Shown piece after piece: positions 8,598 through 42,131 of a stretch of 64,000 nt of DNA. The stretch is from contig JAMPXK010000001.1 of assembly GCA_023701245.1 (NCBI GenBank), forward strand, positions 23 through 64,022, read 5' to 3'. Position 1 is the first letter of the stretch. Each line of letters opens with the position of its first letter. The DNA comes from Elusimicrobiales bacterium (GTDB lineage: Bacteria; Elusimicrobiota; Elusimicrobia; Elusimicrobiales; UBA9959). The translations under genes were made by a program, and so were the position numbers. Below the pieces are notes generated by a model. That model did no database searches and had not been told where the DNA came from. It saw only the letters and a program-made list of their open reading frames with translations.

Positions 8598-8621
8598 TCC
8601 CCCGTAGTCCGCGGGTTCGCG

Positions 8622-8771
8622 GGTGCCGAGGGTATGCCTGCCTCGGGCACGGGGTCGGAAACACCGTTGCCGCCCCTCCTCACACTGCGGTGTCGCTTCG
8701 CTCCACTCGCCCCTCGCGCTGCGCAAGCTCGGGGCTGCGCGAAGGCCCGAGGCAGGCATACCCTCGGTACC
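8622..8771 (-). repeat. Palindromic intergenic repeat element, copy A (inverted relative to copies B and C)
   Basis: Terminal inverted repeats GGTGCCGAGGGTATGCCTGCCTCGGGC / GCCCGAGGCAGGCATACCCTCGGTACC. The interior reverse-complement matches copy C over a 66-nt stretch with one mismatch. Confidence 0.9.
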
Positions 8772-8800
8772 CGCTCCGGTTATTCGGCCTGCCGGGGGGG

Positions 8801-27876: not shown

Positions 27877-27929
27877 ATATTGTCCCCCTGAAAACCCAAA
27901 TCTGTCCGCCGCATCTTTGCGCCGGAGGG

Positions 27930-28056
27930 GCGGCAAGGGTATGGGTTCGCCGGGCCTTCGCGCAGGCCTGAGCTTGCGTAAGCGCGAAGGCCGAGTGAGG
28001 AGCGGCGGCCCCGGTGTGGCCGACCGCGTGCCCGACGGGCCCATACCCTTGCCGCA
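27930..28056 (+). repeat. Palindromic intergenic repeat element, copy B (shortest, internal deletion)
   Basis: TIRs GCGGCAAGGGTATGGGTTCGCCGGGC / GCCCGACGGGCCCATACCCTTGCCGC. Shares the core GGGCCTTCGCGCAGGCC.GAGCTT.CGTAAGCGCGA.GGCCG and ...CCGACC.CGTGCCCGA with copy C. Lies between tkt and gnd on the coding-opposite strand. Confidence 0.85.
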
Positions 28057-28066
28057 CCGACTTCTG

Positions 28067-41895: not shown

Positions 41896-41939
41896 TCAGG
41901 TCGCCTGGTGCAGGTTCGGGGGCCTGCCGCCAAGTTAAC

Positions 41940-42104
41940 ATGCGTGGACGGAGAGGGTAAGCCTTCTGAGGGCCTTCGCGCAGGCCCGAGCTTACGTAAG
42001 CGCGAGGGCCGGGTGGAGCGAAGCGACACCGCAGTGTGAGGAGGGGCGGCAACGGTGTTGCCGACCCCGTGCCCGAGGAAGGCTTACCCTCTCCGTCCAC
42101 GTGC
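41940..42104 (+). repeat. Palindromic intergenic repeat element, copy C (longest)
   Basis: TIRs GCGTGGACGGAGAGGGTAAGCCTTCTGAGGGC / GCCCGAGGAAGGCTTACCCTCTCCGTCCACGTGC. The core matches copies A (reverse complement) and B. Lies between convergent dapA and mtgA. Confidence 0.9.
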
Positions 42105-42131
42105 TTAAAGTTGGACCGGCAGTAAACCTGA

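Follow-up and report, generated by a model that had tools for sequence, protein, structure and literature searches.

Between genes in a 64,000-nt window of an Elusimicrobiales genome lie three long palindromic elements, here called copies A, B, and C, which are flanked by mutually unrelated housekeeping genes. We asked what kind of element they are, whether their structure acts in RNA or in DNA, and how such a structure comes to stand in these gaps. The answer we favor, at a probability of about 0.68, is that all three represent an undescribed, lineage-specific, non-coding small mobile DNA repeat, referred to below as R1, which is non-autonomous, is copied as a whole hairpin, and has its tips exchanged and overwritten between loci. 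This probability applies to the overall picture, and we place its details lower.

The window is the whole stretch of DNA that was analyzed. It forms part of contig C76 of genome G000, an assembly of 2.55 Mb in 96 contigs with 63% G+C. All genomes used here are metagenome bins, and since mobile genes may be missing from such assemblies, the absences reported below are provisional.

Three copies of one element in the window

All three intergenic elements are present at the positions originally given and share a common interior. The original prediction held that the reverse complement of A is identical to C over 66 nt except for one base, and our alignment bears this out with a single mismatch over that length. 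A BLAST comparison of the two copies gives 89.9% over 139 nt (E = 7e-48). The terminal inverted repeats that had been proposed around AGGGTA/TACCCT measure 24–28 bp in each copy, and the stem bases next to this motif do vary among the copies with complementarity kept. The positions first assigned to the elements were right, but their real size is larger, as both A and C extend further outward. See Table 1 for the coordinates, arms, cores, and neighboring genes of each copy.

Table 1. Location and anatomy of R1 copies A, B, and C in the window
Feature	Position	Strand	Description
Copy A, full extent	8598..8800	-	Fills the entire 203-nt gap between two stop codons
Copy A, outer layer	8598-8618 / 8775-8800	-	GGCAGGCCGAATAAC... 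subfamily
Copy A, as first read	8619..8774	-	Arms 8619-8643 and 8750-8774; three-way-junction core 8644-8749
Copy A, 23-nt insert module GTGGAGCGAAGCGACACCGCAGT	8684..8706	-	Hairpin GGUG-GA-GC-GAA-GC-GA-CACC; contains GCGAAGC
Copy A, neighbors			Stop codons of GNA1162-like lipoprotein gene (+) and tRNA U5-methyltransferase gene (-)
Copy B	27927..28058	+	Arms 27927-27950 and 28035-28058; core 27951-28034; without the 23-nt module
Copy B, neighbors			Transketolase and 6-phosphogluconate dehydrogenase, both minus strand
Copy C	41942..42102	+	Arms 41942-41968 and 42075-42102; core 41969-42074
Copy C, with extra outer stem	41924..42122 (at least)	+	CTGCCGCCAAGTT / AAGTTGGACCGGCAG
Copy C, 23-nt insert module	42013..42035	+	
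Copy C, neighbors			Convergent DHDPS and transglycosylase genes

A conserved three-way junction on a variable stem

The R1 unit is a long imperfect palindrome of 115–260 nt. Full copies have an outer stem with a median length of 29 bp (range 17–63) and a copy-specific sequence, capped by a three-way junction. The resulting Y-shaped tip is made of two hairpins, one with the apex GCG(N)NAGC and the other with CAC-GGT-GTG. We evaluated this junction fold, which has 31 pairs in five helices, on an alignment of 38 copies. In total, 88.8% of the cells are paired, compared to 71.9% in column shuffles, none of which reached 88.8% in 500 trials, and to 34–51% in controls with slid partners. Double-sided changes were found in 24 of the 31 pairs, and the stem covariation first suspected from three copies is therefore real in the larger alignment. 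The helices backed by covariation are P3 (CTTCGC/GUGAGG), P3b (GGCCY-GA-GC...GC-GA-RGGCC), and P4 (GCGGC-GGCCAC-GGT-GTGGCC-GA-CCGC). An internal hairpin, GGCCTTCGCGC/GCGCGARGGCC, had been predicted in all three copies; this part of the prediction did not hold, as the hairpin is an alternative pairing available to one subtype, and covariation over the 38 copies backs the other fold.

The best-conserved letters of the element are two apical regions, GCTTGCG(T)AAGC and CAC-GGT-GTG, and tandem G·A mismatches recur at fixed positions of the fold. The tip apex reads GCGNNAGC or GCGNAGC in 29 of the 38 copies. Both forms follow the consensus of the “mini-hairpin DNA” motif (PMC13037366), and judged by its letters, the R1 apex would fit a DNA mini-hairpin in those copies. 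Two main subtypes differ in the helix below the junction, which is CGGGC/GCCCG in one and GCAAAAC/GTTTTGC in the other. The 23-nt hairpin module GTGGAGCGAAGCGACACCGCAGT has 17 near-identical copies in G000, 16 of which lie within elements and always in the element's orientation, at a position that differs between the two subtypes. Visual inspection also revealed a core-less remnant at G000:C19:1829-1903, a 75-nt hairpin with typical R1 arms (GGGTATGCCTTC) whose tip is deleted between short GCG/CGC repeats.

Copy number and distribution

Iterative nhmmer searches of G000 found 66 copies of the R1 family, far above the chance expectation, and the covariance model R1 built here found 60. The early description of the elements as dispersed, structured, and REP/MITE-like is borne out by these many dispersed copies. 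Thirteen of the 66 copies lie at contig ends or within 45 nt of them, which shows that the R1 repeat breaks the assembly.

Within the genus, the covariance model, applied to at most 84 scored candidates per genome, matched 41 of 43 genomes, with 9 to at least 84 copies in each and a genus-wide total of about 2000 R1-family copies; the remaining two genomes gave no match to the model. In a phylum-wide sample of 151 genomes, matches were found in four genera of one family only, namely the genus of G000 and three sister genera, plus three weak matches in a single genome from another family. Searching for strain-level variants by exact protein identity gave no result, and we found no description of such repeats for Elusimicrobia in the literature searched.

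Insertion of whole hairpins

Next, we compared occupied sites with their counterparts in other genomes, using five relatives for 16 sites and the whole genus for A, B, and C. All 16 sites, which comprise A, B, C, and 13 others, are insertion-polymorphic between species, as had been proposed for checking. Each is empty in some species and filled in others, often with the other orientation or subtype when filled. Site A is empty in G018, G038, G016, and G004 and holds a reversed copy in G017; in G018, two stop codons are separated here by 1–2 nt. Site B is empty in G044, G002, and G013, and site C is empty in G037, where its flanks are contiguous. Because at some of the empty sites only 1–2 nt separate two stop codons, or a stop codon from a start codon, no hairpin stood in these places beforehand.

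Genome G158, which belongs to a sister genus and is 100% complete, contains seven copies that are 94–100% identical over 142 nt, arms included. Since these copies share their arms too, the whole hairpin is the copied unit. At one site of this burst, approximately 230 extra bases stand where four relatives have a stop codon, 1–2 nt, and an ATG. We looked for a target-site duplication and found no consistent direct repeat, either at the seven recent G158 copies or in the empty-site comparisons, and the termini are not sharply defined.

These data led us to reject two local origins of the structure. Neither insertion of the core into pre-existing hairpins, such as terminators, nor formation of the arms as an inverted duplication of target DNA agrees with empty sites of 1–2 nt between codons and with arms that are identical throughout the G158 burst. 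The CGGA...GACTTC borders at site B could be taken for a single insertion point shared by several subtypes. G043 copies at unrelated loci share the same borders, however, and the borders are therefore part of the element.

Overwriting, tip exchange, and inversion

Younger copies overwrite older ones, and tips are swapped between loci while arms stay local, which is new in this analysis. G197, a sister genome of G158, has flanks that are 86–99% identical to it (mostly at least 93%). Of the seven sites of the G158 burst, at least four are occupied in G197 by an inserted element that is different or older, and three of these elements belong to the R1 family, in either orientation. At one burst site, G158 itself retains a remnant of roughly 30 nt from the earlier, reversed arm. 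The site B orthologues of G018 and G036 are 87–91% identical in the arms and 84% in the flank but only 54% in the tips, and the 23-nt module is located elsewhere. In G043, a pair consisting of a reversed subtype-II copy and a subtype-I copy occurs at three loci; the elements are 97–99% identical, whereas the 40-nt spacer between them is only 47–54% identical. Across G000, the tips have a mean identity of 68% and a maximum of 95%, while the outermost 14 paired nucleotides of the arms are 35% identical between copies, which is the random level. Helix variants are mosaic and occur in all four combinations (e.g., 7 of 30 allele pairs for P3b versus inner P4), and orthologous copies in G000 and G016 show a G:C to C:G swap in an arm.

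At site B in G033 (L070), a segment between 11-bp repeats is flipped, and the spacer of a head-to-head dimer in G098 (L134-L136) is flipped in one of three copies. Such flipped DNA between inverted copies or short repeats indicates that the elements promote local inversions. Among the matches listed, all seven close pairs are head-to-head (-,+), although three come from one composite, so that there are about five independent cases. Some head-to-head (-,+) pairs are 1.0–1.3 kb apart and enclose cargo. One of these, L132 (G038:C8:109900-111900), contains an Mrr_cat restriction-endonuclease-like gene, and another, L133 (G013:C91:48100-50300), contains two genes without a Pfam match, one of them membrane-like.

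Folding strand and gene context

Of 45 copies, 43 fold more stably on the modeled strand than on the complementary one, and the difference averages 9.4 kcal/mol. Paired positions have 144 G·T against 22 A·C (p = 4e-23), and the core mismatches comprise 78 G·A against 12 C·T. This bias in stability and in G·T and G·A indicates that one particular strand is folded, as a single strand, at some stage that matters. The surplus of G·T on one strand would agree with selection on its fold, or else with C-to-T damage during a single-stranded phase.

R1 copies lie within a few nucleotides of the adjoining genes and in many cases take up the entire gap. Convergent gaps make up 10% of all gaps but contain 16 of 51 copies, an enrichment (p = 3e-5). 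Few copies lie in divergent, promoter-bearing gaps, which account for 29% of the intergenic length and contain 3 of 51 copies (p = 4e-5), but there is no depletion when divergent gaps are taken by number instead of length (p = 0.22). Where both neighboring genes share a strand, 13 copies have the folding strand in sense and 19 in antisense orientation, a difference without significance. Orientation relative to GC skew or gene-strand bias is 34:29 and 30:34, in a fragmented genome where skew follows the coding strand. As the folding strand has no fixed relation to gene direction, the fold most likely serves the element's own propagation rather than gene expression.

Search for a mobilizing enzyme

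Profile searches of G000 found no Y1_Tnp, TnpB, RVT_1, IS110, DDE_Tnp_1, or rve. The window had been described as free of transposases, and the absence of these six transposase and reverse transcriptase families from the entire genome, and hence from the window, agrees with this. No multicopy protein genes were found in G000. A reverse transcriptase is also absent from G158, G197, G043, and G098, all of which carry the element and are at least 98% complete, and we rejected retro-mobility for this reason. The Mrr_cat nuclease described above was considered as an autonomous partner and rejected as well, since close homologues occur in only 2 of the 43 genomes and the homologue in G044 has no flanking elements. 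The Mrr_cat gene within the G038 inverted pair is cargo, and the other genes between inverted pairs are likewise unrelated cargo.

Alternative readings

A structured RNA, whether a cis-acting mRNA 3'-end stabilizer, a processing site, a Rho-independent terminator, or a multicopy small RNA, has several observations in its favor. The fold is highly stable, shows covariation, and has G·U and tandem G·A pairs; one apex can be read as a GNRA tetraloop, C(GUAA)G; and copies are enriched at gene 3' ends, a few nucleotides off stop codons. We nevertheless consider this reading quite unlikely. Of 32 tandem cases, 19 have the folding strand antisense to the operon around it, among them copy B, which is on the plus strand between two minus-strand genes and is thus antisense to the tkt-gnd mRNA. 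The terminator role raised in the original prediction is not supported, because of the 62 gene 3' ends from which transcription would enter an element, just 5 show a T-run beyond the stem, compared to 39 of 66 for the canonical terminator hairpin of G000 (CCGCCGGG..CCCGGCGG), and because orientation relative to the genes is random. No Rfam family matches in the window at gathering score, in line with the early statement that the element was not recognized as a known family, and an E-value search of Rfam returned only sub-threshold generic hairpin (miRNA) models. A stand-alone small RNA gene is unlikely given unique flanks, which leave the copies without a shared promoter, and given that presence varies among species at each examined site next to unrelated genes. 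R1 may still have a generic protective role as a hairpin at mRNA 3' ends, in either orientation. A DNA element that serves the host, as a site for the nucleoid, gyrase, priming, or a recombination protein, with copy turnover as a by-product, appears very unlikely to us. Escherichia coli REP/BIME elements do bind gyrase, IHF, and Pol I, the conserved loops in variable stems of R1 suggest recognition by a protein, and the repeat has persisted for long in one bacterial family at tens of copies per genome. Even so, its position is not conserved, each site being empty in some species, two genomes of the genus have no match, no orientation bias relative to GC skew or gene strand was seen in a weak test, and the G158 burst of near-identical copies resembles selfish amplification.

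Two further readings concern the means of spread. If R1 were a REPIN-like repeat mobilized by the RAYT (Y1 HUH transposase) genes of the genus, a strand-specific fold would suit an enzyme acting on single-stranded DNA, and the head-to-head arrangement of close pairs among the matches listed would resemble REP doublets. PF01797 (Y1) genes are indeed widespread, occurring in 37 of the 43 genus genomes and in all five other element-bearing genomes tested, and one Y1 protein scores 76 bits on NF047646, the REP-associated tyrosine transposase. Against this, we found no R1 element within 1.5 kb of any of 10 Y1 loci, nor one at an eleventh (L066), and the Y1 genes are bordered by inverted REPs of their own (GGGGACAGGCTACTTTTT, GGGGACACAATACC..., and GGGGACGCTGCACAATAACTCAAT). 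The two also do not co-vary: six genomes with 30–64 R1 copies, including G000 and G051 (98% complete), have no PF01797 match, as far as incomplete bins can tell, and both R1-negative genomes have 3–4 such matches. We therefore rejected RAYT as the mobilizer and consider this reading highly improbable. Alternatively, R1 might have no transposase of its own, and the Y-tip might be a structure-driven selfish module that spreads in a homing-like manner, a proposal that we hold only tentatively and at well below even odds. The extruded hairpin would be cut or would stall replication, and active tips or entire hairpins would then be copied into other hairpins and into breaks by a structure-specific host nuclease acting with recombination or template switching. 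This would explain the homogenized mosaic tips, the local complementary arms, the overwriting, and the lack of a mobilizer gene that co-varies with the element.

Proposed mode of spread

In our preferred reading of R1 as a non-autonomous mobile repeat, whole hairpins are copied into the few bases between genes, and a trans-acting factor would recognize the conserved tip. Breaks or stalls at an extruded hairpin would be repaired from other copies in a manner that resembles gene conversion or homing. Such repair would homogenize the tips and let active variants overwrite old ones. Arms could drift and yet stay complementary, either because copies that do not fold cannot propagate or through repair within the hairpin. 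We infer that the active or intermediate form is single-stranded DNA of the modeled strand because reverse transcriptase is absent from the four near-complete genomes, so that the choice of DNA over RNA rests on negatives. The mobilizing enzyme is neither the RAYT of these genomes nor a reverse transcriptase.

Several observations weigh against this mobile-repeat reading. No mobilizing protein of the six families searched was found in G000, and no target-site duplication or sharp termini were seen even for the recent G158 copies. Transposition of single-stranded DNA of the IS200/IS605 type predicts an orientation bias, and none was seen relative to GC skew or local gene strand, which is a weak test on a fragmented genome. 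Furthermore, the reuse of sites could reflect a small number of permissive gaps.

Other structured elements

A number of other structured elements were observed in these genomes. The near-constant terminator stem CCGCCGGG-N3-8-CCCGGCGG forms 66 hairpins across G000, for example at C51:9659-9709 and C42:4452-4513. G000 also contains a separate REP/REPIN family of GGGGTCAGGTCTTTACTTTTGACC inverted doublets (C24:15537-15617, C27:4860-4945, C53:11911-11986, and others). RAYT-like Y1 loci of relatives (L090, L092, L131, and L066) have matching GGGGAC... inverted repeats on their flanks, and a CCCGACA-N6-TGTCGGG palindrome lies directly upstream of the relatives' Y1 gene. The G000 assembly has these REPINs and no Y1 gene.

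A second structured repeat, unrelated to R1, has the hairpins GGGAACCGYGCAACGGTTCCC, CAATCGCGCAGCGATTG, and GGGGTGACTATT..AATAGTCAC and is found at G000:C76:124648-124803, outside the window, and at G000:C32:15714-15871. In G017 (L018, L026, and L052), it occupies intergenic sites that hold R1 in G000. Immediately 3' of tRNA genes, we found structured inserts of approximately 200 nt, with the tRNA 3' end duplicated on the far side (G000:C35:4038-4365, C84:20145-20491, C19:2435-2790, and C93:1-307; G197 L124 and G196 L125). They resemble a small element that uses tRNA genes as integration sites. Lastly, a strongly conserved non-coding unit is located upstream of one R1 copy at G000:C6:2400-2620, with orthologues at L016-L020. 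This unit, which includes a TTGACA...TATACT promoter, the hairpin GGAGCGGAACACCTTATCGACGGTTGCCTTCCGCTCC, and a terminator, is probably a small RNA gene.

Significance

With about 2000 well-folded copies in one genus, R1 provides a large natural data set of structure kept by compensatory change. It spreads without a recognizable transposase, reverse transcriptase, or RAYT. Solving its propagation could reveal either a new enzyme for folded single strands or conversion-based, transposase-free selfish DNA. There are also practical consequences for work on these uncultivated bacteria: the repeats break assemblies and generate spurious ORF calls, inverted copies create inversions, and any search of intergenic regions for regulatory RNAs should first mask R1.

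Comparison with known systems

R1 resembles the attC sites of integrons, in which structure is conserved, sequence is variable, and a single strand folds into the active form. attC sites stand in cassette arrays beside intI and have R''-L''/L'-R' core sites; R1 copies are not gathered in such arrays but are single and dispersed among housekeeping genes. Conserved multi-hairpin folds with compensatory changes and mosaics of modules are also known from the double-hairpin elements and GC clusters of fungal mitochondria and from the RIME elements of Rhizobium. To our knowledge, no transposase is known for these fungal and Rhizobium elements, and we know of no description of a Y-junction inside a long copy-specific stem in either. 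The hosts of R1 differ from theirs, and the sequences are unrelated. PATE elements derived from IS200/IS605 go with TnpA/TnpB and have an orientation tied to the direction of replication. Both TnpA and TnpB are absent from G000, and the orientation counts of R1 (34:29 and 30:34) are a weak test in a fragmented genome.

In general, R1 works like REP/REPIN/BIME elements and hairpin MITEs, yet it fails defining tests of both. Like REP/REPIN/BIME elements with their RAYT (TnpA-REP) (PMC3116915, PMC3733652, PMC8266576), R1 consists of high-copy, GC-rich, non-coding intergenic palindromes that are enriched at gene 3' ends, are inherited vertically within a lineage, form inverted doublets, and presumably fold as single strands. 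The REP/REPIN-RAYT unit, however, is defined as a 20–40-nt palindrome with a GTAG/CGTC-type terminal tag (PMC3733652). R1 is instead a unit of 115–260 nt with a conserved three-way-junction tip and unconserved outer arms (35% identity between copies), and the RAYT genes of R1-bearing genomes adjoin another REP and do not co-vary with R1.

Hairpin MITEs such as Correia/NEMIS, ERIC, RUP, and Nezha (class, PMC3184786) are, like R1, non-autonomous intergenic elements of 100–250 nt that fold over their whole length and are insertion-polymorphic between relatives; MITEs are sometimes co-transcribed. Conserved terminal inverted repeats, a target-site duplication, and a parent IS are features of MITEs. 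R1 has no conserved terminal inverted repeats, as its arms are copy-specific in G000 and common only within recent bursts; no consistent direct repeat was seen at its sites; and we found no IS that shares its ends and encodes a transposase. The part that R1 conserves is its internal tip, not its ends.
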